Shown here piece by piece: positions 18,156-43,500 of a DNA stretch of 64,000 nucleotides. The notes under the pieces are model-generated. The model saw only the letters and a program-made list of their open reading frames with translations. It searched no databases and was not told where the DNA came from. Position 1 is the first letter of the stretch; each line of letters starts with the position of its first letter. A program made the translations under genes and the position numbers. This stretch comes from Mustelus asterias (lineage: Eukaryota). The stretch lies in NCBI RefSeq assembly GCF_964213995.1, contig NC_135801.1, positions 86,676,001 through 86,740,000 of the forward strand. The letters run 5' to 3'.

Positions 18156-19234
18156 CTGGGTAAGCAATGTGTTTGTAGATTAAAGGCTCAGAGACCTTAG
18201 CTCCAAAGTCTCATTCCCATAGGCAGGACCTTTTGCAGAGCCAGAATCAGTACTTGGCTGGCAGTCTGGAGCAGACGTTAGGCCTACAAGAGGCTAATGT
18301 AAGACATCGTAAAGTAAATTCAAATACATAATGCAAGGGTAGTACACACATTTCTGAATTTTAAAACTTGGCACACACTAGCTATCATAGTGACAGAATC
18401 AGCTTTTCTCTCTCACCAAAGTGAGTCTTCAAAGAATCACAGTGCAACCAGTTACATTTTCTGATTTACTTTGTATGTTTTTAAATGCATTTTTATAGAA
18501 GTTGGGAAGATTGTCACAATTTACACACAATTATGCTAGATGTACACATTGTTTCATTAGATGAAAAAAATTAGAGTAAATATTCTAAACTGATTACTTT
18601 AAATGGGGGCCTTCATGACCCGACCCCAACATCAGGTAAATTTGTCAGAGGGCTCAGGGACGGGAATCCGGAGTGGCGGCGATGGAGGAAGCACTGCCTG
18701 GGGTGTATCAATGCCTTCTTGTGAGTCCAGAGTGCACACTTTCTGGAAAATTTGGCCTGGTGGAAAAACCAACTCAGGCTTTAGGTTTAAAATGAGAAAC
18801 TGGGCCCCAATGACATCATTAGAACTTGATCTGCATGTTTATAGAGGACCCTCACCTGCTTGGCACTGGTGTCCTTGCTGCCTCCAACTTAAAATTGCAG
18901 GCAGCTTGATTGGGATAGGAAAGGAATGGGTAAACCCTGTCTCCATTTTCTCTTTGCCTGGGTCTGTATCTCAGAATGATGCAGGGATTACACTGTGTGT
19001 GCACCTGTTTTACTTAGTGAAATATCAACTCCATGCCATAGTTCCAGCTTTCAGCTCTTTTTAGTTTGTTCACTTTTCTCTGAGTCCACATCCAGGTTTA
19101 AACAATCAAGCACAGTGAGCACCAATAGTAAACAGACAGGCATAATCAAACACAAAACAATACAGAACACTACAGATGAGAGAATTAAAATCAAGGCTTG
19201 AGTCTCTCTTTCGTCCTTCTTACACAATTCATCC

Positions 19235-22200
19235 AATTTGCTTCCCTTTCCCCAAATCCGTACTTTTAATCTTCTCTGGCAATCCCCCATGTGCTGGCTT
19301 GTCAAAGATGTTCAGTAAGTCCATGTGCACTACAGTCACTGCATTCCCACATTTACCATATCTGTTACCTCCTCAGAGAATTTTAAAATGTTTACTAAGC
19401 ACAATACGCAGACAGGAAGGTGGGTTGAAGTGTGTCTACTTCAATGCAAGGAGCATCCGGAATAATGTAGGTGAACTTGGAGCGTGGATTGGTACTTGGG
19501 ACTATGATGTTGTGACCATTACGGAGACATGGTTAGAACAGGGACAGGAATGGTTGTTGGAAGTTCCGGGGTATAGATGTTTCAGTAAGAGTAGGGAAGG
19601 TGGTAACAAAGGTGGAGGAGTAGCATTGTTAATCAAGGATAGTTTAACGGCTACTGAAAGGCAGTTCGAGGGGGATCTACCAACTTAGGTAATATGGGCT
19701 GAAGTTAGAAATAGGACAGGAGCGGTCACGTTGTTGGGGGTTTTCTATAGGCCCCCAAATAGTAATAGAGATGTGGAGGAAGAAATTGCAAAGCAGATTA
19801 TGGATAGGTGTGGAGGTCACAGGGTAGTTGTCATGGGTGACTTTAACTTTCCAAACATTGATTGGAACCTTTATAGGTCGAATAGTTCGGATGGGGCAGA
19901 TTTTATACAGTGTGTGCAGGAGGGTTTCCTGACACAATATGTGGATAGGCCGACAAGAGGTGGGGCCACATTGGACTTGGTACTGGGTAATGAACCGGGC
20001 CAAGTGTTAGATTTGGTTATGGGAGAGCACTTTGGAGATAGTGACCACAATTCGGTGTCTTTCATTATTGCAATGGAGAGGGATAGGGCCTTATGGCAGG
20101 GCAAGGTTTATAATTGGGGGAAGGATAATTATGATGTGATTAGGCAAGAATTAGGGAGCATAAGATGGGAACAGAAACTGTCAGGGAAAGGCACAAATGA
20201 AAAGTGGAGCTTGTTCAAGGAACAAATACTGCATGTCCTTGATAGGCATGTCCCTGTCAGGCAGGGAGGAAATGGCCGAGTGAGGGAACCATGGTTCACA
20301 AACGAGGTTGAATGTCTTGTCAAGAGGAAAAAGGAGGCGTATGTAAGGATGAAAATACAAGGTTCAGTTGGGTTGCTTGAGGGTTACAAGGTAGCAAGGA
20401 ATGAGCTAAAAAAAGGGCTTAGGAGAGCTAGGAGGGGGTATGAGAAGTCCTTGGCGGGTCGGATCAAGGAAAACCCCAAGGCTTTTTACTCTTATGTGAG
20501 AAATAAAAGAATGACCAGGGTGAGGTTAGGGCCGGTCAAGGGTAGTAGTGGGAAATTGTGCATGGAGTCAGAAGAGATAGGAGAGGCGATGAATGAATAC
20601 TTTTCTTCAGTGTTCACCAAGGAGAGGGACCATGTTTTTGAGGATGAGAGTGGGATACAGGTTGATAGGTTGGAGGAGGTAGATGTTCTAAGGGAAGGTA
20701 TATTAGCAATTTTGAAAACCCTGAGGGTCGATAAGTCCCCTGGGCCAGATGGGATATATCCTAGGATTCTTTGGGAGGAAAGGGATGAGATTGCAGAGCC
20801 TTTGGCTTTGATCTTTGGGTCCTCACTGTCCACGGGGACAGTGCCAGAGGACTGGAGAGTGGCGAATGTTGTTCCTCTGTTCAAGAAAGGAAATAGAATT
20901 GACCCTAGTAATTATAGGCCGGTTAGTCTTACTTCGGTGGTCGATAAGTTAATGGAAAAGGTCCTGAGGGATAGGATTTATGACCATTTGGAAAGATGTA
21001 GCTTAATCCGTGATAGTCAGCAAGTCTTGCCTCACAAATTTGATTGAATTCTTTGAGGAGGTAACTAAGTGTGTAGATGAAGGTAGAGCAGTTGATGACG
21101 TATACATGGATTTTAGTAAGGCGTTTTATAAGGTTCCCCATGGTAGGCTCATGAAGAAAGTAAGGAGGTGTGGGATAGAGGGAAATTTGGCCGATTGGAT
21201 AAATAACTGGCTATCTCATAGAAGACAGAGGGTGGTAGTGGATGGAAAATTTTCAGACTGGAGACCAGTTACCAGCGGTGTACCACAGGGATCAGTGCTG
21301 GGTCCTCTGCTATTTGTGATTTTTATCAATGACTTGGAGGAGGGGGCTGAAGGGTGGGTCAGTAAATTTGCTGATGACACCAAGATTGGTGGAGCAGTGG
21401 ATGAGGTGGAGGGCTGTTATAGGCTGCAACGAGACATAGATAGGATGCAGAGCTGGGCCGAAAAATGGCAGATGGAGTTTAACGCTGATAAGTGCGAGGT
21501 GATTCATTTTAGTAGAACAAATTTGAATGTGGATTACAGGGTCGACGGCAGGGTTCTGAAGACTGTGGAGGAACAGAGAGATCTTGGGGTTCATATCCAC
21601 AGATCTCTGAAGGTTGCCACTCAAGTGGATAGAGCTGTGAAGAAGGCCTATAGTGTGTTAGCGTTTATTAACAGGGGGTTTGAGTTTAAGATCGTGGGGT
21701 TATGCTGCAACTGTACAGGACCTTGGTGAGACCACATTTTGAATATTGTGTGCAGTTCTGGTCACCTCACTATAAGAAGGATGTGGAAGCATTGGAGAGA
21801 GTGCAGAGGAGATTTACCAGGATGCTGCCTGGTTTGGAGGGTAGGTCTTATTAGGAAAGGTTGAGCGAGCTGGGGCTTTTCTCTTTGGAGCGGAGGAGGA
21901 TGAGGGGCGACTTAATAGAGGTTTATAAGATGATGAGGGGGATAGATAGAGTGGACGTTCAGAGACTATTTCCTCGGGTGAATGTAGCTGTTACTAGGGG
22001 GCATAACTATAAGGTTCGTGTTGGGAGATATAAGAGGGATGTCCGAGGTAGGTTCTTTACTCAGAGAGTGGTTGGGGTGTGGAATGGACTGCCTGCTGTG
22101 ATCGTGGAGTCGGACACTTTAGGAACTTTCAAGCGATTATTGGATAGGCACATGGAGCTCATCAGAATGATAGGGAGTGGGATAGCTTGATCTTGGTTTC

Positions 22201-28647: not shown

Positions 28648-29343
28648 TTGGGGTGGGACTTGAACTGTACAATGCAGAGATAAGAGTGCTATCTCTTAGC
28701 CAAAGCTGAGATCAGAAGTAGGGTGGAAATCACTATTGGCTTGTTATTATCCAAAGACTGATGCAATATCACTTATTATGTTATTTATTCAAATACATGG
28801 TTGAAAGCTTCAAGTTTCTAGGTGTCCAGATCACTAACAACCTGTCCTGGTCCCTCTATGATGATGCTATAGCTAAGAAAGCCCCCAAATGCCTTGACTT
28901 TCTCAGGAGCCTAGGAAATTCAGCGTGTCCACTATGACTCTCACCAACTTTTACAGATGCACCAAAGAAAACATTCTTTCCGGATGTATCACAGCTTGGT
29001 ATGGCTCCTGCTCTGACTAAGGCCGCAAGAAACTACAAAGGGTTGTGAATGTAGCCCAGGCCACAAAGCAAACCAACCTCCCATCCATTGACTCCGTCTA
29101 CACTTCCAGCTGCCTTAGAAAAGTAGCCAGCATAATCAAGGATCCCACGCACCCTGGATATATTCTTTTCAACCTTCTTCCATCAGGAAAAAGATACAAA
29201 TGTCTGAGGTCACGTATCAACCTACTCAAGAATAACTTTTTCCCTGCTTCCTCCCTGCTGGACTGACCTTATATTAGGTTGATCTTTCACTACACCCCAG
29301 CTGTGACTGTAGCATTATATTCTGCACTCTCTCCTTTCCTTCT

Positions 29344-31058
29344 TGTGGTGAACCATTGTTGGTTCCCACCAGGTAGTGCTGAGCCATGGTCTGGCCAGTA
29401 CTATGAGTCTGTAGATATGTTACTGTTGGGGTTAGGGTTGGGCTGTTCTACCTGTTAATATAGTCCTATGGTACACCCCAGTTGGCTCCGCCTCCTGGGA
29501 GAGGTATAAAGGTCACTGCTCTGCCTGGTGACCCTTTAGTCTGGGATTGTATATTGTATATAGTAGCTCTGTTATTGTTGGCAATAAAAGCCTTTATTTC
29601 CCGAGTACATCCTGCCTCCCGTGTGATTTATCGCGCATCAATTTTATTGCCAACAAGTAAATTCTTTTTTTCAAAAAAAAAACAAAAGAAAACATGGAGC
29701 AAATGCTTAAACCCGAACGGCTTACGTTGGGCCCACGTGCGGCGGGAGCATCGAACACTTTCGACCACTGGTTGAAGTGTTTCCAAGATTACCTCGACGC
29801 CTCCACAGCGGCCACCGACGACGCCGACAGACTCCGGGTCCTCCACGCGAGGATAAGCGACGCTGTATACTTAGCGATCCGTGGGGCCACCGACTACAAA
29901 GGGGCCCTCGAGCTTCTCAAGAAGCGATACAACAAACTGCCGAATGAGATCCATGCTCGACACCTTCTAGCCACTCGACGGCGTCAGCCCGGCGAAACGA
30001 CGGAACAGTCTGGAAGGCTGTCTTACTGGCGTTGAGGTCTAAAGGTCTTCCAGTCTCCCGTTGGCAAGAGGTACTCCCTGATGCGCTCCACTCCATATGC
30101 TCACTCCTGTGTACGGCAACCAACGCTACTCCTCATGAGAGAATGTTTTCATTCCCTAGGAAGTCTTCCTCTGGGACCTCATTACCGTCTTGGTTGACGT
30201 ACTCAGGACCTGTCCTCCTGCGGCAGCATGTTAGGACCCGCAAGTCCGACCCTTTGGTTGAACAGGTCCATCTCCTCCACGCCAACCCTCAGTATGCCTA
30301 CGTGGCATATCCTGACGGGCGAGAGGACACGGTCTCGATTCGAGATCTGGCGCCAGCAGGGGGCTTGGAAACCCTTGCTGCTCCCACACCCCCTGTTAGG
30401 GACCCCCCCAACCATTATTTCCCCTCCTGGCACGGTGCGGGCAGTATCGGGACCACCACTTAACCCTCTTACTCCCGTGTACAGCTTGCCTGAGTCCAGG
30501 AGATGGTCGCCACTTCAAGGCGTGCCCGAGTTCAGCGGATTGTCACCACCTCGTGGTCTACCGGCCCGTGAGGAACTGGAGGAGTCGCTGGACACCACCT
30601 TGGAGAGAACGTCACCGCGATTGCCTGAACCGGTGTCATCGCCGGTGTTGAGGAGGTCACAGCGACGGTGCGGTCCCCCAGACCGTTTGAACTTATAGAC
30701 AGATGAACTATTGTTCTGTGTTTTGTACCCCGCCGGCCTTTGTTTTCAAAGGAGGGGTGAATGTGGTGAACCATTGTTGGTTCCCACCAGGTAGTGCTGA
30801 GCCATGGTCTGGCCAGTACTATGAGTCTGTAGATATGTTACTGTTGGGGTTAGGGTTGGGCTGTTCGACCTGTTAATATAGTCCAATGGTACACCCCAGT
30901 TGGCTCCGCCTCCTGGGAGAGGTATAAAGGTCACTGCTCTGCCTGGTGACCCTTTAGTCTGGGATTGTATATTGTATATAGTAGCTCCGTTATTGTTGGC
31001 AATAAAAGCCTTTATTTCCCGAGTACATCCTGCCTCCCGTGTGATATATCGCGCATCA
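29344..31058 (+). mobile_element. Gypsy element A: 1.7-kb internally deleted LTR retrotransposon (gag N-terminus joined to integrase C-terminus)
   Basis: LTRs at 29344-29640 and 30762-31058 (297 bp, 4 differences by eye); TG...CA; TSD CTTCT; PPT aaaggaggggtgaa; gag MEQMLKPERLTL; IN WQEVLPDALHSI...TNATPHE. Confidence 0.97.
29505..29541 (+). promoter_or_regulatory. LTR promoter: TATA box and putative initiator
   Basis: TATAAA at 29505-29510 and TTAGTC at 29536-29541; same spacing in element B (37638/37669) and similar in the solo LTR (11761/11790). Confidence 0.6.
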
Positions 31059-32028
31059 CTTCTTCCCTATATACTCTATGAATGGTATGCTTTGTCTGTA
31101 TAGTGTGCAAGAAACAATACGTTTCACTATATCCCAATACATGTGACAATAATAAATCAAATCAAATCAAAATAGTTTAGAAAGGAAACTGGCACAAGGA
31201 AGGAGTTACTTGAATTAGTTCTGTCCACATAGTGAACCCAAATGGAGGTCCAAAGACCACCCACTGGTTTAGAAGCACTGGAATGACAGTCAGTTGCAAT
31301 TCTGAGGGCAGGAGGAAGGAACCCTCCCGGAGTGCATAGGTAAGACGTTGGGGAGAGGGACATGGCCAAGTAGTGCCCTGGCCTCAATGCCCATCTCACA
31401 CATTTACAGTGCCCAGGGGGAAATGTCGGCAATGATTATGTGTGTGGGGGGGTGGGTGGGGTGTGGTTAGGGAAAATGCTGGGGATGATTATGGGGATGG
31501 GATGGGAGGGCTTGTGTCCTGATACCTCTGTGGTGGAGTGGGGGAGTTTAATTTTATTTCTGATTGAGGCACCTTTAAAGTTGGCGCCCCGATGCTTGTG
31601 GAGCCTGTTGTCAGTTCTAAGAGTCCCCGGCAGAGTGATGGCGTAAACCATGCCCACTCACTTCTTTTCTTTAAAGAGGTTCAAAATCTGGAGAGAAAAC
31701 TGGTCTGTTCGATTGAAGAGTTACAGGTCAGGTCTTCGACTGAGCTTGACACTTTGTCCAATTCTGGTAAAATCTTCCCCTATTAAAATCACCTCTTACT
31801 CTTCTAAACTCTAATGAGTATAGGCGCAACCTGATCAATCTTTCATCATCAGGCAACTGCTTCATCTCCGGAATCAGCCAAGTGAACCCTCTCTGAACAG
31901 TTTCCAATGCAATTATATCCCTTCTGAAGTAAGGAGACAATAATCTAGTTGTCTCACCCAGATCCTGTACAAGACTTCCCTACTTTTATACTCTATCTCC
32001 CTTGCAATAGAGGCCAACATTCTATTTG

Positions 32029-34243
32029 AATCATAGAGAATCATAGAATCCCTACAGTGCAGAAGGAGGCCATTCATCCCTTTGAGTCTGCACTGACAAT
32101 AATCCCACCCAGGCCATATCCCCATAACCCCACATATTTACCCCACTCATCCCCCTAACACTAAGGGGCAATTTAGCATAGCCAATCTACCTAACCGAGC
32201 TCAGAATATAAAAACAGATAGCAAAAGTTTCTGCAAATATATAAAACGAAAGAGAATGGCGAAAGTAAACATTGGTCCTTTAGAGGACGAGAAGGAGGAT
32301 GTAATAACTGGAAATGAGAAAATGGCTGAGGCATTGAACAGGTATTTTGTGTCTGTCTTCACAGTGGAAGACACAAATAACATGCCAAAAATTAATGACA
32401 GGAAGGCTATGACAAGTGAGAACCTAGAAACTATCATTATTACAAAAGAGGTAGTGTTGGGCAAGTTAATGGGGCTAAAGGTAGACAAGTCTCCAGGTCC
32501 TGATGGAATGCATCCCAGGGTACTATAAGAGATGGCGGGGGAAATAGCAAATGCACTAGTGGTAATTTACCAAAATTCGCTGGACTCTGGGGTGGTTCCC
32601 GCAGATTGGAAAACAGCAAATGTGACGCCACTGTTTAAAAAAGGAGGTAGACAAAAGGCAGGTAACTATAGGCCGGTTAGCTTAACTTCTGTAGTAGGGA
32701 AAATGCTTAAATTTATCATCAAGGAAGAAATAGCGAGACATCTGGATGTAAATTGTCCCATTGATAAGACGCAGCATGGATTCATGAAGGGCAGGTCATG
32801 TTTGACTAATTTGGTGGAATTCTTTGAGAAGATTACATGTGTAGTGGACAATGGGGAATCTGTGAATATGGTGTATCTGGATTTCCAGAAGGCATTTGAT
32901 AAGGTGTCCCACTAAAGACTGTTACATAAGATAAAGCTGCACAGTGTTACGGGTAATGTATTAGCATGGATAGAGGATTGGTTAACTAGCAGAAAGCAAA
33001 GAATGGGGGTAAATGGGTATTTTTCTGATTGGCGATCAGGACTAATGGTGTGCCTCAGGGATCAGTGTTGGGACCGCAATTGTTTACGATTTACATGGAT
33101 GATTTGGAGTTGGGACTAAGTGTAGTGTGTCAAAATTCACAGATGGCACTAAGATGGGTGAAAGAGCAAAGTGTGCAGAGGACGCTGAAAGTCTGCAAAG
33201 GGATATAGATAGTCTAAGTGAGTGGGCGAGGGGCTGGCAGATGGAGTACAATGTTGGTAAATGTGAGGTAATCCATTTTGGTAGGAATAACAGCAAAATG
33301 GACTATTATTTAATGGTAAAAAATTGCAGCATGCTGCTGTGCAGAGAGACCTGGGTGTCCTTGTGCAGGAATCTCAAGGAGTTGGTTTGCAGGTGCAACA
33401 GGTAATTAAGAAGACAAATGGAATTTTGTCCTTCATTGCTTGAGGGATGGAGTTTAAAAACAGCGAGGTTATGTTGCAGCTGTATAAGGTGCTGGTGAGG
33501 CCACAATTGCAGTACTGTGTACAGTTTTGGTCTCCTAACTTGAGAAAGGATATACTGGCACTGGCAGGGGTGCAGAGGAGATTCACTAGGTTGATTCCGG
33601 AGTTGAAAGGGTTGGCTTTTGAGGAGAGACTGTGTAGACTGGGGCTGTACTCATTGCAATTCAGGAGAATGAGGGGAGATTTTATAGAAACGTATAAGAT
33701 TATGAAGGGAATAGATAAGATCGAAGCAGGGAAGTTGTTTCCACTGGTGGGTGAAACTAGAACTCGGGGGCATAGCCTCAAAATAAGGGGAAGCAGATTT
33801 AGGACTGAGTTGAGGATTAACTTCTTCACACAAAGGATTGTGAATCTGTGGAATTCTCTGCCCAGTGAAGCAGTTGAGGCTACCTCACTGAATGTTTTTA
33901 AGGCAAGGATAGATACATTTTTGAACAGTAAAGGAATTAAGGGTTATGGTGCGAGGGCGGGTAAGTGGAGCTGAGTCCACAAAAAAATCAGCCATGATCT
34001 TATTGAATGGTGGAGCAGGCTCAAGGGGCCAGATGGCCTACTCCTGCTCCTAGTTCTTATGTTCTTATGTTCTTAACCTGCAATCTTTGGATTGAGGGAG
34101 GAAACCGGAGCACCCGGGGGAAACGCATGCAGACATGGGGAGAATGTGCAATCTCCATATAGACGGTCACCCAAGGCTGGAATTGAACACGAGTCTCTGG
34201 CACTGTGAGGCAGCAATGCTAACCACTGTGCCACCATGCTGCC
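32029..34243 (-). mobile_element. HE1-like V-SINE (32029-32196 plus 34074-34243) split by a CR1
   Basis: Tail at 32029-32060, head with A/B boxes at 34170-34243; taacc duplicated at 32192-32196 and 34074-34078. Confidence 0.9.
32197..34073 (+). mobile_element. 5'-truncated CR1 LINE (different subfamily), degenerate RT
   Basis: [54 protein letters not shown]; (TTCTTATG)n tail. Confidence 0.96.
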
Positions 34244-34966
34244 CTTTGCCTTCCTAATTACTTGCTGTACCTCCATGCTAACATTTTGTGATTCATGTAC
34301 AAGGACAGCCAGATGCTTCTGAACCAGAGCATTTCTCCATTTGGTGTCCGAGAGAGGTTCGATTGTAGATGGTCTTTGTACCATATGGTCTGATTGATTA
34401 GTACCACAGCCTTATGATTAATTACTGGTTTAAACAGGAACATATTTGCTTGATATAATTACAAAATTTGACTCAACTATAAGTTAAAACACCTTCTAAT
34501 AACCAAAGGATTTACCTGCTAATCTTAGCTTGTTTGTTGAATTTGAGTCTATCGTTCCAAGGTCATGTAATTAAAGTCGACTTTTTACCAAATAATCCAT
34601 TCCTTACTAAGGTATACTTGTTTTGACTTGGAATCAATATTTTTCACATCATCTATGTTCAGCCCTGGTGAAGTCAGTCACATTACTGATGTCAATTTTT
34701 TTTTAATCAGTCATAAAGCCAAGGCCTAGCATGGCAAGATTAATGTTCCTGTGATTTGTAGTGAGTGGGGATATGTGAGCAGCATCAGAGAGTAAAGTCA
34801 AAGCACCTTTAAATGCAAAATGTGTGGCAAATGGAATTTTGCCAAATAACGTATTTTAATAATAAACCGTCAAATGGAACATTCATGCTCCTGGTAAACA
34901 GGAGTTTTGAAACAATAAATAAATATATGTTATAAAATTATAAATGGAAAGTTTTGGAAAACATAC

Positions 34967-35120
34967 AGTCCCGGTTGTCCTTGGCCCACTGCCCTGTATA
35001 CACCCGTTTCCTGGCTTTTGGGATAAAAGGAAGGCAAGCCAGTCGCAGCCCTTTCTGCCCTTGTCAGACATTTCCATTCAGGGTCAGACAGGATCAGAGA
35101 CATTTCAGTGGAAACAAGTA
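34967..35120 (-). CDS. Candidate coding exon of an unidentified host gene
   Basis: Acceptor ttggatttcag/ and donor /GTATGT; one open frame LVSTEMSLILSDPEWKCLTRAERAATGLPSFYPKSQETGVYRAVGQGQPGL; non-repeat sequence; protein not recognised. Confidence 0.35.
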
Positions 35121-37818
35121 CTGAAATCCAAATTGGATATAAAACAAGTGGAAATAGTGTCAAGGTGGCATCTGTTTCAATTTTGTCCCCCGAACACTGG
35201 TTACAAATTCTGGCACACCAGCAGCGCACATCAAAAACCTCCTCCAGATCCACTATTGAACACATGACCAAAATGCCGAAGCAATGCTTAAATTGTCCTT
35301 ACGTGTCTGGTGTTGAATTTCCGCATAACCCAGACAAATAGCGTGATTCTCTGACCATGTGCGCTCATGCACAAATTGTGCTGAGGCCAGAGAATCGCAG
35401 GGGAGGGCCATAGTGCGTTCAATGCCAGTGAGAACCCCTTTTGGGATTTTCCCAGTCCCTGCACCCTGACATAAATACCCAATAAGAGCTATCTTGGCAC
35501 TGCCAGGTTGTCAGGTTAGCAGTACTGAATGGAGGGCCTGGGTGAACATGGGGGAGGTGCTTCTGAAGAGTGGTATGAGAGCCCTCCTAAAGTGGGGTAA
35601 AGCATGGGTGAGCTGCTTAAGGGGGCAGCAGGGGTGTGCTTATGAAGGGGGAACCCAGCAGGCTCCTGAAAGTGGGGGAGCACTTGGCGACCTCATATCA
35701 GGTTTGCTCACTTGGGGAGGGGTTGTTGTTACCAGCGAGTGGGTGGGATTGTCTTAGCTGATGAGTAGGAGGGGAGTGCGTTGTGTTGTCTGGAGACCAG
35801 GGTGCCCTTTAAAAAGGATGCCCTCATCTCCAAGGAGCCGGCCTTGCCGGTGTCATTGTGTCCCCACTCCAAGGAGAGAGTGTGAGTAACGTGACAGATG
35901 GGATGGTGTTGTGAAAGGGTCCATGAGAGAATGAGTGTCGATATGTGTCCCCACTAATGGATGTGTGAAATCTGTGAAGAGAATCAACATTTGAGTATAT
36001 GATGCCATGCTGAGAGTTTGAGTAAGTATATATATTTTTCATTGTTCCTGTTGGTTGCTATGGAACCAGGAATAGCAAGAACTCACCCCAATTACCCCCA
36101 CATTCCGTACCGTCTCCTTCTTTGCACCCCAGTACTCCAAATGACCCCTTCATGGGCTTACATTTAGACCTGGAGATCAAGATCTTCTTGTAGATTAGCA
36201 GGAAACCAGCTATATACACACAAAAGGTCTTTTCTGAATGTCTTTCCTGGAACTGCATGTGAGGAGACTACAGCAGAGCACAGAAACTCTGGGAGAGCTT
36301 CTTTCCATTCTTCAGGCAGATCGGCGAGCTATCTTAAGAACCAGAACAGCGTTTACTGAAGCTCAGAAATCCATGGCAGCTCTTAACTCTGGGGCACCGG
36401 ATTATTCTAAGGAACAACAGCCAGCTTCTATCAGTTAGTGAGTTGGATGTCTACTTTTTACAAAGGGAGGCAATGGATGCTCTATTTGCCAGGGCAAACC
36501 AGGTGATTAGATTTGATGCAATATCAAGGCAAATAAAGGAAAAGGCCAATCATTTTTATGGGTCTTTGGATTTCCATGAATGTTTCAAGCTGTAGATTAC
36601 ACTCTCGCAGCCATCTGTGTTCTGCCTCTCAGCCCACATCATTATGTTAAGTGGAAAAGGTTTCAACACTTAATGTCATGCAAAGATCTCTCATGAGTTT
36701 ATAGGCACATCCACAAGTTTCTGTGTAACAATATCCAGTTAAGCAGAAAGCTGATGATTTACTGAGATTCTTTCTTGATGAGATATATCCAATAGTACAG
36801 TGACTGCTACTCACAATGAATCAGACAAGGGATGGGCAATAAATGCTGGCCAGCCAGTGACGCCCATGTCCCATGGGTAAATTAAAGAAAAAGACAAACA
36901 CAGTAAAGAGGTTCACATTTGCACTTATGCACAAATTTGTACATTCTTTCCTTCATAGAATTTGTGCTTGTAGTGGGGCAAACGTTCCGGGGTATAGATG
37001 TTTCAGTAAGTGTAGGGAAGCTGGTAAAAGAGGTGGAAGAGTAGCATTGTTAATCAAGGATAGTTTCACGGCTGCGGAAAGGCACTTCGAGGGGGACCTG
37101 CACACTGAGGTAATATGGACTGAGGTTAGAAATAGGAAAGGAGCGGTCACGTTGTTAGGAGTTTACTATAGGCCCCCAAATAGTAATAGAGATGTGGAGG
37201 AAGAAATTGCTAAGCAGATTATGGATAGGTGTGGGGGTCACAGGGTAGTTGTCATGGGGGACTTTAACTTTTCAAATATTGATTGGAACCTTTGTAGGTC
37301 AAATAGTTCGGATGGGGCAGTTTTTGTGCAGTGTATGCAGGAGGGTTTCCTGACACAATGTGTGGATAGGCCGACAAGAGGTGAGGCCACATTGGATTTG
37401 GTACTGGGAAATGAACCGGGCCAAGTGTTAGATTTGGTTGTGGGAGAGCACTTTGGAGATAGTGACCACAATTTGGTGTCTTTTGTTATTGCAATGTGTG
37501 GTGAACCATAGCTGGTTACCACTATGTGTACTTGGACACATGTTACTCTTGTTACTGTTGGGGTTAGGGTTTGGGTGTTCCACCTGTTATTATTGTTTAT
37601 GTGGTACACTCCGTTCGGCTCCGCCTTCTTACAGGAGTATAAAGGTCACTGCTACTTCCTAGTAGCCCTTAGTCTGGGATAGTATTGTTAAGTAGTGTGC
37701 TCCAATCTTGTTGTGAATAAAAGCCTTTATTCCCAGGTACGTCTTAGCCTCCCGTGTGAATCAATCGCGCATCAATTTTATTCACAACAAAATACCGAAA
37801 ATTTTGTTCGAGGAAAAA

Positions 37819-38730
37819 ATGGAGCAGATGCTGAAGCCCGATCGGCTAACCTTGGATCCGCGTGCCGCTGGGGCATCGAATACTTTCGACCATTGGTTGA
37901 AGTGCTTGGAGGATTACGTTGAGGCCTCAACAGCAGTCCAGTCCGACACCGACAGATTGCGGGTCCTCCACGCCAGGGTGAGCGACACTGTGTATACAAA
38001 AATTCACGATTCCCAAAATTACGAAGATGCTATCGAATTACTCAAGAAGTTGTATAATAAACAGCCGAACGAAATTCATGCTCGTCACCTATTAGCCACT
38101 CGACGGCGGCAACCCGGCGAAACTACGGGACAGTACCTGCGCGAACTTCAACAGCTAGCCAGAGCCTGCAACTGCAAGGAGGTGTCGGCTACTCAATACA
38201 CCAACGATCTTATTCGGGACACGTTCGTGGCGGGAATCGGCTCATCCTATATTCGCCTGCGGCGGCTAGAGCAGGGTAACTTGGACCTGGCTAAGACGGT
38301 AGAATTGGCCGATGCAATGGAAACGGCCTCCAGAAGTCTCGAAACCTACCCCACCGACCACGTGGGAACAGCGTGGCAAGCACAGCCACCGCCTCAACTG
38401 TACTTGGCGGCTCCTCGGAACTGCGCGATAATGCTCCCAACTTCAGACCTGACGGCTGCGGCAGCTCCTGGAGCCCACGGTGCTATTTCTGCGGATTGGC
38501 GAAGCATCCTCGCCAGAGATGTCCGGCCAGGGCGGTGTTTTGTTCTGCCTGTGGAAAGAAAGGGCACTATGCAAAAGTGTGCCGAGCAAAGACCCCTTCG
38601 AAGCCCAGCAGTGCTGCGTGCGACTCCCCAGGATCCATCTCCTCGTCTCCGGCCTCGTCGATGTCTTCAGCCACGTGCGATCCACGGGCGCCGCCATTTC
38701 CTATGATGACGACGCAAGCCACGTGCGACC
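37819..38730 (+). pseudogene. gag: Gypsy gag with tandem CCHC zinc knuckles, frameshifted
   Basis: MEQMLKPDRLTLDP...RRRQPGET...LIRDTFVAGI; in the next frame CYFCGLAKHPRQRC-PARAVF-CSACGKKGHYAKVC. Confidence 0.92.
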
Positions 38731-40538
38731 TGGTGGAAAACGGGGTCATCGGCCCCGATCCAGACTGTATGCGTCCCCTCCTTGAACTTCCCCTACCCAC
38801 TAGCATCAAAGCACTGAGAAGATGTTTAGGCTTCTTATTGTACTATGCACAGTGGGTCCCAAATTACGCGGATAAAGCCCGTCCGCTCATAAAATCTACC
38901 TCTTTTCCCCTGACAGCAGAGGCTCGCCTAGCCTTTGCAGGGATAAAAGCCGACATCGCGAAAGCCACGATGCACGCTGTTGATGAGTCCATCCCTTTTC
39001 AAGTGGAGAGTGATGCATCTGATTTCGCCCTGGCCGCCACACTTAACCAGGCGGGCAGGCCCGTCGCCTTTTTCTCTCGCACCCTCCAAGGCCCTGAAAT
39101 TCGGCACTCCTCTGTGGAGAAAGAGGCTCAGGCCATTGTGGAGGCCGTACGGCATTGGCGCCATTATTTGGCTGGCAAACGGTTTACCCTGCTCACGGAC
39201 CAGTGGTCCGTGGCCTTCATGTTCAACAACACGTTAAAGGGAAAAATTAAGAATGATAAAATCTTGAGGTGGAGAATCGAACTCTCCACCTACAACTATG
39301 ATATCATGTACCGTCTGGGGAAGCTCAATGAGCCCTCAGATGCCCTGTCGCGTGGAACATGTGCCAGTGTGCAGGAGGACCGGTTACAGGCCCTCCACAA
39401 TGATCTCTGCCATCCGGGGATCACTCGGTTTTTCCATTTTATAAAGGCTCGGAATCTGCCCTACTCCATAGAGGATGTCAGGTCGATAACTCGAAGCTGC
39501 CAGGTATGTGCAGAGTGCAAGCCGCACTTCTACCGGCCTGACAGGGCACACCTCATTAAGGCCACTCGCCCTTTTGAACGACTGAGTGTCGACTTCAAGG
39601 GGCCCCTTCCTTCGACAGATCGGAACGTGTATTTCCTCAACGTGGTTGACGAATATTCCCGATTCCCCTTTGCCATCCCCTGTTCTGACATGTCCTCTGC
39701 CACAGTCATCAAAGCCCTGCGGAGTCTTTTTACCCTGTTCGGCTACCCCAGTTAAATCCACAGTGATAGGGGTTCGTCGTTTATGAGCGACGACTTGAGG
39801 CAATACCTGCTCTTGAAGGGAATTGCCTCAAGTAGGACTATGAGTTATAACCCCAGGGGTAACGGACAGGTCGAGAGAGAAAACGCTACAGTCTGGAAGG
39901 CTGTTTTACTGGCGCTAAGGTCTAGGGGTCTTCCAGTCACCCGTTGGCAAGAGGTACTTTCTGATGTGCTCCATTCAATCCGGTCCCTCCTGTGTACGAC
40001 AACCAACGCTACCCCACATGAGCGGATGTTTACCTTCCCTAGGAAGTCTTCCTCTGGGACCTCTTGGTTGACGTACTCAGGACCTGTCCTCCTGCGACGG
40101 CATGTTAGGGCCCGCAAGTCCGACCCTTTGGTTGAACAGGTCCATCTCCTCCACGCCAACCCTCAATATGCCTATGTGGCATATCCTGACGGGCGAGAGG
40201 ACACGGTCTCTATCAGAGATCTGGCGCCTGCAGGGGACCTGGAAACCCCCGTCACTTCCGCACCCCGGGTTAGGATTCCTTTGCCCATTCTGTCCCCTCC
40301 TGACACGGCGCGGGCAGCATCGGGACCTCAACTTAATCCTCTTACTCCCGTGTGCAGCTTGCCTGAGTCCAGGAGATTGTCGCCACCTCGAGGTCCACAG
40401 GCGCGTGAGGAACTGGAGGAGTCAGTGGACACCACCTCGGAGAGAGGGTCGTCACCACGGTCACCAGAACCGGCACTGGAGCCAGTGCTGCGGAGGTCGC
40501 AGAGACGGTGCGGACCCCTGATACGGCTGAACTTGTGA
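38731..40538 (+). pseudogene. pol: Partial pol: RT connection, RNase H, integrase (stop at 39753-39755)
   Basis: ESDASDFALAATL, VAFFSRTL, EKEAQAI, TDQ; HNDLCHPG...CQVC; VDFKGP, VVDEYSRF, HSDRG, NGQVERENAT. Confidence 0.95.
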
Positions 40539-43500
40539 ACATGTGGACAGTTCGTATTGTCTCCTTACCCCACCGGCCTTTGTTTTTAAAGGAGGGGTGA
40601 ATGTGGTGAACCATAGATGGTTACCACGATGGGTACTTGTACATATGTTACTCTTGTTACTGTTGGGGTTAGGGTTTGGGTGTTCCATCTGTTATTATTG
40701 TTTATGTGGTACACTCCGTTCGGTTCCGCCTTCTTACAGGAGTATAAAGGTCACTGCTACTTCCTAGTAGCCCTTAGTCTGGGATAGTATTGTTAAGTAG
40801 TGTGCTCCAATCTTGTTGTGAATAAAAGCCTTTATTCCCGGGTACGTCCTAGCCTCCCGTGTGAATCAATCGCGCATCACAATGGAGAGAGATAGGGCCG
40901 TACGGCAGGGCAAGGTTTACAATTGGGGGAGAGGTAATTATGATGCAATTGGGCAAGAATTAGGGGGCATAGGATTGGAACAGAAACTGTCAGGGAAAGA
41001 CACTAATGAAAAGTGGAACTTTTTGAAGGAACAAATACTGGGTGTCCTTGATAGGTATGTCCCTGTCAGGCAGGGAGGAAATGGCCGAGTGAGGGAACCA
41101 TGGTTCACGAAAGAGGTGGAATGTCTTGTGAAAAGGAAGAGGGAAGCTTATGTAGAGATGAGGAAACAAGGTTCAGATGGCTCGATTGAGGGTTACAAGT
41201 TAGCAAGGAATGAGCTGAAAAAGGGGCTTAGGAGAGCTAGGAGGGGACATGAGAAGTCCTTGGCGGGTCGGATCAAGGAAAACCCCAAGGCTTTTTACTC
41301 TTATGTGAGGAATAAAAGAATGACCAGGGTGAGGTTAGGGCCGGTCAAGGACAGTAGTGGGAACTTGTGTATGGAGTCAGTAGAGATAGGCGAGGTGATG
41401 AATGAATACTTTTCTTCAGTGTTCACCAAGGAGAGGGGCCATGTTTTTGAGGAAGAGAAGGTGTTACAGGCTAATAGGCTGGAGGAAGTAGATGTTCGGA
41501 GGGAGGATGTACTGGCAGTTTTGAATAAACTGAAGGTCGATAAGTCCCCTGGGCCTGATGAAATATATCCTAGGATTCTTTGGGAGGCAAGGGATGAGAT
41601 TGCAGAGCCTTTGGCTTTGATCTTTGGGTTCTCACTGTCCACGGGGATGGTGCCAGAGGACTGGAGAGTGGCGAATGTTGTTCCTCTGTTTAAGAAAGGG
41701 AATAGAAATGCCCCTGGTAATTATAGACCGGTTAGTCTTACTTTGGTGGTTGGTAAATTGATGGAAAAGGTCCTTAGGGATGGGATTTACGACCATTTAG
41801 AAAGATACGGATTAATCCGGGATAGTCAGCACGGATTCGTGAAGGGCAAGTTGTGCCTCACAAATTTGATAGAATTTTTTGAGGAGGTAACTAAGTGTGT
41901 TGATGAAGGTAGGGCAGTTGATGTCATATACATGGATTTTAGTAAGGCCTTTGATAAGGTCCCCCATGATCGGCTTATGATGAAAGTGAGGAGGTGTGGG
42001 ATAGAGGGAAAGTTGGCCGATTGGATAGGTAACTGGCTATCTGATCGAAGACAGAGGGTGGTGGTGGATGGAAAATTTTCGGCATTGAGGCAGGTTGCTA
42101 GCGGAGTGCCACAAGGATCAGTGCTTGGTCCTCTGCTATTTGTGATTTTTATTAATGACTTAGAGGAGGGGGCTGAAGGGTGGATCAGTAAATTTGCTGA
42201 TGACACCAAGATTGGTGGAGTAGAGGATGAGGTGGAGGGCTGTTGTAGGCTGTAAAGAGACATAGATAGGATGCAAAGCTGGGCTGAGAAATGGCAAATG
42301 GAGTTTAACCCTGATAAATGTGAGGTGATTCATTTTGGTAGGACTAATTTAAATGTGGATTACTGGGTCAAAGGTAGGGTTCTGAAGACTGTGGAGGAAC
42401 AGAGAGATCTTGGGTCCATATCCACAGATCTCTAAAGTTTGCCACTCAAGTGGATAGAGCTGTGAAGAAGGCCTATAGTGTGTTAGCTTTTATTAACAGG
42501 GGGTTGGAGTTTAAGAGCCGTGGGGTTATGCTGCAACTGTACAGGACCTTGGTGTGACCACATTTGGAATATTGTGTGCAGTTCTGGTCACCTCACTATA
42601 AGAAGGATGTGGAAGCGCTGGAAAAAGTGCAGAGGAGATTTACCAGGATGCTGCCTGGTTTGGAGGATAGGTCTTATGAGGAAAGGTTGAGGGAGCTAGG
42701 GCTGTTCTCTCTGGAGCGGAGGAGGCTGAGGGGAGACTTAATAGAGGTTTATAAAATGATGAAGGGGATTGATAGAGTGAACGTTCAAAGACTATTTCCT
42801 CGGGTGGATGGAGCTATTACAAGGGGGCATAACTATAGGGTTCATGGTGGGAGATATAGGAAGGATATCAGAGGTAGGTTCTTTATGCAGAGAGTGGTTG
42901 GGGTGTGGAATGGACTGCCTGCAGTGATAGTGGAGTCAGACACTTTGAGGAACATTTAAGCGGTTATTGGATAGGCACATGGAGCACACCAGGATGATAG
43001 GGAGTGGGATAGCTTGATCTTGGTTTCAGATAAAGCTCGGCACAACATCGTGGGCCGAAGGGCCTGTTCTGTGCTGTACTGTACTATGTTCTATGTTCTA
43101 TGTAAACTAAGGGAGTTTGGGCTGCTGCAGGAGAAGAATGAATGGAAAGAGTTAAACAGACAGCCTGACTATAGTATTCATATTCACTGTGGGCATACAC
43201 GACAAATTACCATATCCCAGACAACACTAACACAGTCACATCCTAGGTGAGATCTTTGAGGTTACAGCAACGATAAGAGAATCAATATCTTATCAAGGCT
43301 CCACAATGTCTGGAGGAGCCATTGATCTCTGGAAAACTAACCAAGTATCAGGGAGGTGGGAACAATTAACACACCATCGAAATTTGTTTGACAAACATAA
43401 TGCTTTGATATTGTAAACGGGTAGACAGGAGATGTCCAGAAAATGACTAAAGCTAAAGCACACAATACAATGAATCTGTATAATGTGATCAAAAACAGAA

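Follow-up and report, generated by a model that had tools for sequence, protein, structure and literature searches.

How reverse transcription is primed in an element that offers no site to a tRNA is the question raised by two long terminal repeat (LTR) retrotransposons, A and B, in a 64-kb stretch of the Mustelus asterias genome (NC_135801.1, positions 86,676,001 to 86,740,000). This whole stretch is called the window below; all positions are given in its own coordinates and all features of A and B lie on its forward strand. A spans 29344-31058 and B 37497-40879, both with complete LTR pairs and 5-bp target duplications. The primer binding site (PBS) of A (29642-29656) is the perfect reverse complement of a 15-nt segment of its own 5' LTR at 29575-29589, hereafter called the arm, and the PBS of B (37776-37790) perfectly reverse-complements the arm at 37708-37722. 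Neither duplex can be extended by a further Watson-Crick base at either end, and the two pairs are the sole exact inverted repeats of at least 15 nt with a spacer of up to 100 nt in the window. The arms differ from each other by GC versus TG, and this difference is mirrored in the respective PBSs. Both PBSs begin 1 nt (an A) past the terminal CA of the LTR and neither contains TGG. An earlier sequence-only reading of the window had pointed out the exact complementarity, the mirrored change and the lack of a TGG site, and had taken them as a sign of self-priming. We confirm the former and find the latter supported by LTR/PBS covariation, by the breadth of the stem among relatives and by mis-copied insertions preserved in the genome. 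Self-priming in one form or another is very probable; the capped leader of the element's own RNA, about 51 nt long and cut just after AAUAAA, is probably the minus-strand primer.

A and B are internally deleted members of an abundant non-chromodomain Ty3/Gypsy lineage. Pattern searches of the 3.68-Gb Mustelus asterias genome found the junction of LTR end and PBS in 5,627 and 5,609 occurrences (about 11,200) against 10 for the reversed-pattern controls, so that the lineage is far larger than the two elements from which it was noticed. Full-length copies have a single gag-pol frame of about 1,340 residues with two CCHC knuckles, protease (PR), reverse transcriptase (RT), RNase H and integrase (IN). 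The features of Ty3/Gypsy (Metaviridae) elements are present: TG...CA LTRs and a target duplication in A and B, and the PR-RT-RNase H-IN order in the natural full-length relatives P0001 and P0002. The closest PDB match is the Ty3 RT. Chromo and SH3_Tf2-1 domains gave no match in any of the seven proteins scanned or among the precomputed domains of the listed relatives. The layout of the Gmr1 clade, with integrase upstream of RT, is not found either: IN lies downstream of RNase H, and the RT is about 29% identical to that of the host's Gmr1-like elements. The single gag-pol frame and the two CCHC knuckles suggest a likeness to Mag and Cigr-1.

Covariation was examined in the first 30 listed hits of each of two junction searches. 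Fifty-eight of these 60 copies were kept; one had its LTR deleted and another was a fold-back. Since the sample had been selected on the first 7 bases of the PBS, only positions -8 and beyond, counted from the arm 3' end, count as a test. At -8 to -15, 93.5% of arm/PBS pairs are Watson-Crick, compared with a mean of 50% and a maximum of 59% in 2000 shuffles between copies, and the sample includes 16 distinct fully paired arm/PBS sequence types. It is pairing rather than sequence that is conserved, as A and B alone had led the sequence-only reading to propose. The stem has a sharp limit, position -15 being paired in 50 copies and -16 in 4. G-U pairs are rare inside -13, as would be expected of a PBS that is copied from the primer and not just maintained by selection. 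G at -10 and A/T at -11 are conserved from Mustelus asterias copies to distant relatives while their neighbours vary freely (L081-L170, L171-L258); they possibly mark a recognition register or a second cut. One copy, L087, has the arm of one subfamily and the spacer and PBS of another (compare L090, L092 and L110), with a single mismatch at -9. It could be a step in the co-evolution of arm and PBS, or else have recombined at the point of transfer.

The stem extends well beyond this genome, to relatives from invertebrate-associated samples. Among 88 distant loci from metagenome and metagenome-assembled genome (MAG) contigs, 33 could be tested; 50 had no gag start, and in 5 gag was too near the contig end or beyond it. 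A stem of 11-19 nt beginning 1 nt past the CA is present in 27 of the 33, with RT/RNase H 40-69% identical where measured. The distant arms mostly end in TAAA, mostly followed by RCC. This breadth bears on the idea that the PBS binds a host tRNA, a tRNA half or another small RNA, its match to the LTR being incidental. A Gmr1-like element of the same genome does have a TGG-type PBS, which suggests that this host makes use of tRNA priming. However, a primer ending in CCA-3' needs the TGG that is absent here, and in each of the 16 PBS types of one genome, as in the additional types from other samples, the match is to the element's own LTR, a variation that no fixed RNA could follow; a fixed host RNA primer is therefore excluded in practice, although the host tRNA set itself was not searched. 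There is no tRNA gene within the window. Priming by a host RNA appears to us exceedingly improbable.

The genome also contains insertions in which copying went astray. The first locus of this kind consists of an LTR, an A and then an inverted copy of the arm, leader and U3, with a target duplication. Such fold-back junctions gave 142 matches genome-wide versus none in controls, which corresponds to at least about 1% of junctions. We examined the structure of 70 of the 142: 47 are palindromes of an LTR and an inverted LTR with a 5-bp duplication, 4 run into the polypurine tract (PPT) and pol, 18 are truncated, complex or without a detected duplication, and one stops early. These products arise most simply if plus-strand strong-stop DNA with the PBS at its end folds back, either onto its own arm or onto the RNA 3' end. 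Fold-back insertions show that PBS and arm pair during copying, without telling which arm is the primer. The inverted LTR copies that continue into the PPT and pol are L121/L323, L133, L139 and L273; L121 and L323 are separated by 1.5 kb and seem to represent a single insertion, abnormal at both of its ends.

Insertions of the second class, snap-back, open with the reversed U5 end, proceed inward and then turn round to copy their own sequence. Searches with gaps of 6-128 nt returned 35 matches and no control match; after removal of 3 unrelated and 3 duplicate matches, 29 distinct events were counted. In 19 of them the end of the minus-strand copy falls between -1 and +4 relative to the arm/GCC junction, and 16 of these 19 have 5-bp target duplications with at most 1 mismatch. 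None of the 29 stops at the predicted initiator. A fixed stop combined with a varying turn-back point in U5 is what the end of a template would produce. In seven events the copy can reach no further than +1, and in L307 the stop is at exactly +1, therefore the cut is most likely located after AAUAAA, with one A left on the template. Cleavage at the 3' end of the arm, as the sequence-only reading had it, is supported by these stops, but its exact placement after AAUAAAA gives way to one a base earlier, after AAUAAA. By extension from these relatives, the RNA of A would most likely be cut between 29588 and 29589, in the segment 29588-29593 that includes the conserved GCCT behind the arm; GCCT of B starts at 37723. 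Under a homology-weighted null this -1 to +4 interval at the arm/GCC junction receives 6-20% averaged over families (p about 1e-7 or less). In low-homology families, A's own included, 5 of 10 events still stop at the junction (p about 1e-4 with a uniform null and families assigned by eye). The U3 end of snap-back products may have been gained directly or via later LTR-LTR recombination.

A has a predicted TATA box (TATAAA, 29505-29510) and an initiator (Inr; TTAGTC, 29536-29541) that puts the predicted +1 at 29538, 37 nt before the arm. Both motifs of A had already been picked out in the window; the equivalents in B are the TATA at 37638 and the Inr at 37669, with a predicted +1 at 37671. A TATA-Inr pair with a spacing of 31-33 nt occurs in 52 of the 58 sampled copies, 50-55 nt upstream of the arm end, which supports a start site upstream of the arm as predicted earlier. 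The full stem appears in both minimum-energy and centroid structures of the predicted A and B leaders. A recombination test in 165 LTRs, designed to tell a capped-leader primer from the 3'-LTR arm, asked whether the leader travels with U3 or with U5; its correlations and discordant pairs point both ways. One fossil agrees with the predicted start. L298 (G000:C16, about 52866720-52867400) is a mini-element of about 680 bp composed of an LTR, an inverted leader, about 60 nt, the PPT and an LTR. The inverted copy, which is plus-strand, breaks off at the predicted initiator (+2 to -1, 2 nt of sequence being shared), and the element resumes in the segment that precedes the PPT. With its two LTRs and 5-bp target duplication, it resembles a terminal-repeat retrotransposon in miniature (TRIM) made in one copying error. 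We consider this single case to be the trace that would be expected from read-through of a primer extending from cap to arm. A directed search for more inverted copies ending at the initiator gave 4 matches and no second case: L298 again, two point variants running on into U3 and one unrelated sequence.

The following course of events could be proposed. Transcription would begin at the initiator, which follows the TATA box by 31-33 nt. The arm, 37 nt into the RNA, pairs with the PBS, as shown by the covariation, within a predicted fold. The RNA would be cut at the arm 3' end, most often one A before GCC judging by the fossils. The cutting enzyme may be RNase H, by analogy to Tf1 only, whose primer is reportedly released by the RNase H of RT. 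The last 14-15 bases of the leader would hold the PBS, and the freed 3' end would prime minus-strand DNA through U5 up to the cut. This DNA would presumably be transferred to the RNA 3' end via the stretch of about 20 nt that separates the cut from the poly(A) site. A cut after AAUAAA would give linear DNA with 2 nt beyond the terminal CA; integrases commonly process two bases beyond CA. Plus-strand synthesis would read the still-attached primer, so that the PBS may be rewritten from the arm in every cycle, which would explain the near-pure Watson-Crick covariation. Side reactions of the self-complementary strands, fold-back and snap-back, would sometimes yield products that are integrated, such as the insertions described above.

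Several observations weigh against the cap-to-arm primer. Just one of the 70 inverted copies stops at the initiator, while 69 reach the U3 end and 4 of those continue into PPT/pol; U3-long inverted copies fit fold-back followed by transfer and equally fit a primer from the 3' LTR. Five of the 29 snap-backs run past the junction and another five stop before it, two of the latter at -2 through homology with the arm junction. The junction is also the best snap-back homology in some families, taking up to 68-85% of the null weight, and about half of the 19 junction stops are not independent of homology. A pause at the duplex, instead of a template end, could give similar stops. The folding z-scores of the leaders are modest (-1.7 and -1.95), a TATA-like word is found about 30 nt before GCC in 16 of the 58 copies, and the contigs examined for RNA evidence gave no transcript starts, ends or poly(A) joints.

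Two other self-priming geometries have to be considered against this background. The arm is present in both LTRs, and the arm of the 3' LTR, or that of a co-packaged RNA, might be trimmed or cut to AAUAAA(A), pair with the PBS and prime, the GCC stops being pauses at the arm/PBS duplex. Traversal of U3 and arrival in PPT/pol are what read-through into an attached 3' RNA end would leave. Nevertheless, a free 5' arm predicts minus strong-stop DNA ending at the cap, the place where none of the snap-backs stops as opposed to the 19 at GCC; L298 stops at the initiator; and fold-back of plus-strand DNA already explains the U3-long copies. Because so many inverted copies reach U3, we keep some probability for the 3'-LTR arm, yet consider it unlikely. 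Alternatively, the RNA could start at the arm, giving a primer of 10-15 nt, or right after it, in the classical Tf1 geometry, and the upstream TATA-Inr pair would not be the working promoter. The Tf1 self-primer is 11 nt long. In 51 of the 58 paired copies G stands at -10 and A or T at -11, a pattern that would suit a primer of 10-11 nt and is similar in most distant stems; the sharp 5' limit of the stem and the TATA-like word before GCC point the same way. On the other hand, -12 to -15 covary too and therefore lie in paired RNA, the TATA-Inr pair keeps its spacing in most copies, and L298 ends at the initiator. We find this geometry improbable, less so than a host RNA and more so than the 3'-LTR arm. 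The capped leader, cut after AAUAAA, is the primer that we retain as probable.

The arm contains AAUAAA in Mustelus asterias copies (29583-29588 in A, 37716-37721 in B), and its complement exists behind the 5' LTR only, as the sequence-only reading had noted; hiding of the 5' poly(A) signal by the stem is therefore plausible. We rate it as possible, if short of probable, that this is a second, non-core job of the stem. However, A(A/T)TAAA lies in the arm of only 13 of the 27 distant stems; 14 lack it, two of which have the hexamer in the loop. The AAUAAA of the 3' LTR of B is predicted to be hidden in a local hairpin anyway, and closeness of a poly(A) signal to the cap may suffice for its suppression. 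In the A and B families both LTRs can form a short local hairpin between AATAAA and the TTTATT directly downstream of it (29583-29598 and 37716-37731), which several other subfamilies cannot. It might also be supposed that the stem controls polyadenylation only and that another RNA primes, given that the hexamer is inside the predicted stem in the 5' context alone and recurs in the distant stems just mentioned. The complement, however, sits exactly at the PBS position, 1 nt past the CA; about half of the distant stems do without the hexamer; snap-back fossils begin at the U5 end beside the PBS and stop at the arm; and no other primer site was seen. A stem confined to polyadenylation is, in our estimate, very improbable. 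The most far-reaching picture is one that we offer tentatively. In it, a pan-animal non-chromovirus Gypsy lineage would use its 15-bp stem as a two-way switch, which in the nucleus keeps the poly(A) signal of the 5' LTR out of reach and afterwards undergoes cleavage exactly behind AAUAAA. The capped leader of about 51 nt would prime and rewrite the PBS each cycle, and more than 100 integrated fold-back/snap-back products would preserve, in the germ line of a vertebrate, a record of the reverse-transcription intermediates at nearly base resolution.

The remaining parts of the two elements are as follows. A is flanked by CTTCT (29339-29343 and 31059-31063). Its 5' LTR (29344-29640, 297 bp, TG...CA) and 3' LTR (30762-31058, with the arm and no PBS behind it) have 4 differences. 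In the internal part (29694-30761) the gag start is fused near 30006-30009 to the integrase end, and the PPT is located at 30748-30761. Compared with natural full-length copies in the same genome, about 3 kb is deleted: most of gag, PR, RT and RNase H are gone. B is flanked by CAATG (37492-37496 and 40880-40884) and has a 278-bp 5' LTR (37497-37774) that pairs, with 9 differences, with the 3' LTR at 40602-40879. In its internal part (37819-40601) gag has two CCHC knuckles and is followed by RNase H, integrase and finally the PPT (40588-40601). Relative to natural full-length copies a deletion of about 1.2 kb near 38730 has removed PR and most of RT. Since both elements are internally deleted, both depend on enzymes from other copies. 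B interrupts a long interspersed nuclear element (LINE; 36861-37496 and 40880-42255), the long reading frame of which resumes directly after the 3' LTR; further LINE pieces are found in the window at 19146-21729 and about 32200-34070.

Some additional observations concern the lineage and its surroundings. L361 is a Gmr1-like element of the same genome with RT downstream of an integrase-type SH3 match, LTRs of about 800 bp and a TGG-type PBS. The SH3_Tf2-1 search of this genome found fragments and two Gmr1-like elements. Scans of viral contigs revealed no relatives of the lineage, and the ESM Atlas gave generic Gag clusters only. In an RT/RNase H tree built without named references, 3 of the 4 stem-less loci placed have long end branches (0.45-0.62); the two outgroup rows were short and long-branched, making the root unusable. 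L251-L258 are animal-type elements inside contigs filed as bacterial MAGs (e.g., Rubritalea, Ekhidna, Hyphomicrobiales), which most likely reflects contamination by host DNA. At about 80.6-84.0 Mb of G000:C15 there is a cluster of several identically scoring copies, which suggests segmental duplication and not new insertions.

Within the literature examined, self-priming is demonstrated for fission-yeast Tf1 only and elsewhere predicted from complementarity. The nearest named protein relatives of our lineage come from rays and a catshark, others from anemones, corals, crustaceans, an aphid, sea cucumbers and a nematode. With protein relatives spread over cnidarians, crustaceans, an aphid, a nematode, sea cucumbers, sharks and rays, priming without a tRNA could be a common feature of animals, perhaps with an origin separate from that in chromoviruses. 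A primer that is internal and has a capped tail calls for a geometry unlike that of Tf1, and it would escape silencing by tRNA fragments. Mis-copied insertions offer an in-genome map of primer cuts and strong-stop ends without experiment. A search for such fossils is applicable to other predicted self-priming families and to LTR annotation, i.e., to PBS-less elements and palindromic 'solo LTRs', and bears on how LTR priming evolved.

Tf1/Tf2, Tj1 and Tosmo1-3, Tf1/sushi chromoviruses, are described as having no tRNA site and a PBS that pairs with their own 5' LTR RNA, a cut freeing the primer, which lies at the 5' end of the RNA; self-priming was shown for Tf1 and attributed to the Tf1/sushi group (PMC10085805, PMC4600332). 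The lineage described here likewise has a PBS that complements its own 5' LTR and not a tRNA. However, the Tf1 primer is the very RNA 5' end, whereas here the arm is predicted to lie well inside the RNA, on the strength of the TATA-Inr pair and L298. The arm is 13-17 bp long in this lineage, ends in NNTAAA followed by conserved RCC and overlaps AAUAAA in Mustelus asterias. No chromodomain was found at the integrase C-terminus, and Gag has two CCHC knuckles. The Tf1/sushi leader forms a 'pretzel' of three duplexes; here the central duplex and a U5 hairpin appear in the predicted folds, complementarity of GCC to U5 is present in some families, and duplexes flanking the PBS were looked for in A and B without success. 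Self-priming was also predicted from PBS-LTR complementarity for the plant lineages Tcn1 (Gypsy) and TAR/Houba/Osr-1 (Copia); these are other lineages and hosts, and the available text mentions neither a cut site nor a poly(A) overlap for them (PMC6317226). Mag, Cigr-1 and CsRN1 are non-chromodomain animal Gypsy elements like ours, and the start of our LTR matches the CsRN1 motif TGTGGYG (PMC3601003). Our literature search found no report of self-priming for these three clades; two papers on Gypsy clades do not treat priming in the parts available (PMC6238403, PMC8220671). The search, to which Repbase, GyDB and several key papers were beyond reach, found nothing on self-priming in our lineage or on integrated snap-back LTR products. 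HIV-1 strong-stop DNA undergoes the same fold-back side reaction in vitro, where minus strong-stop self-priming is a dead-end product undetected in endogenous reactions (PMC6088434), whereas here such products appear to have entered the germ line by integration, the majority of them flanked by target duplications. Overall, the lineage is best read as a variant of Tf1-type self-priming in which the cutting is Tf1-like and the geometry different. What is new is a set of mis-copied insertions with 5-bp target duplications, whose fixed stops suggest the likely position of the RNA cut.

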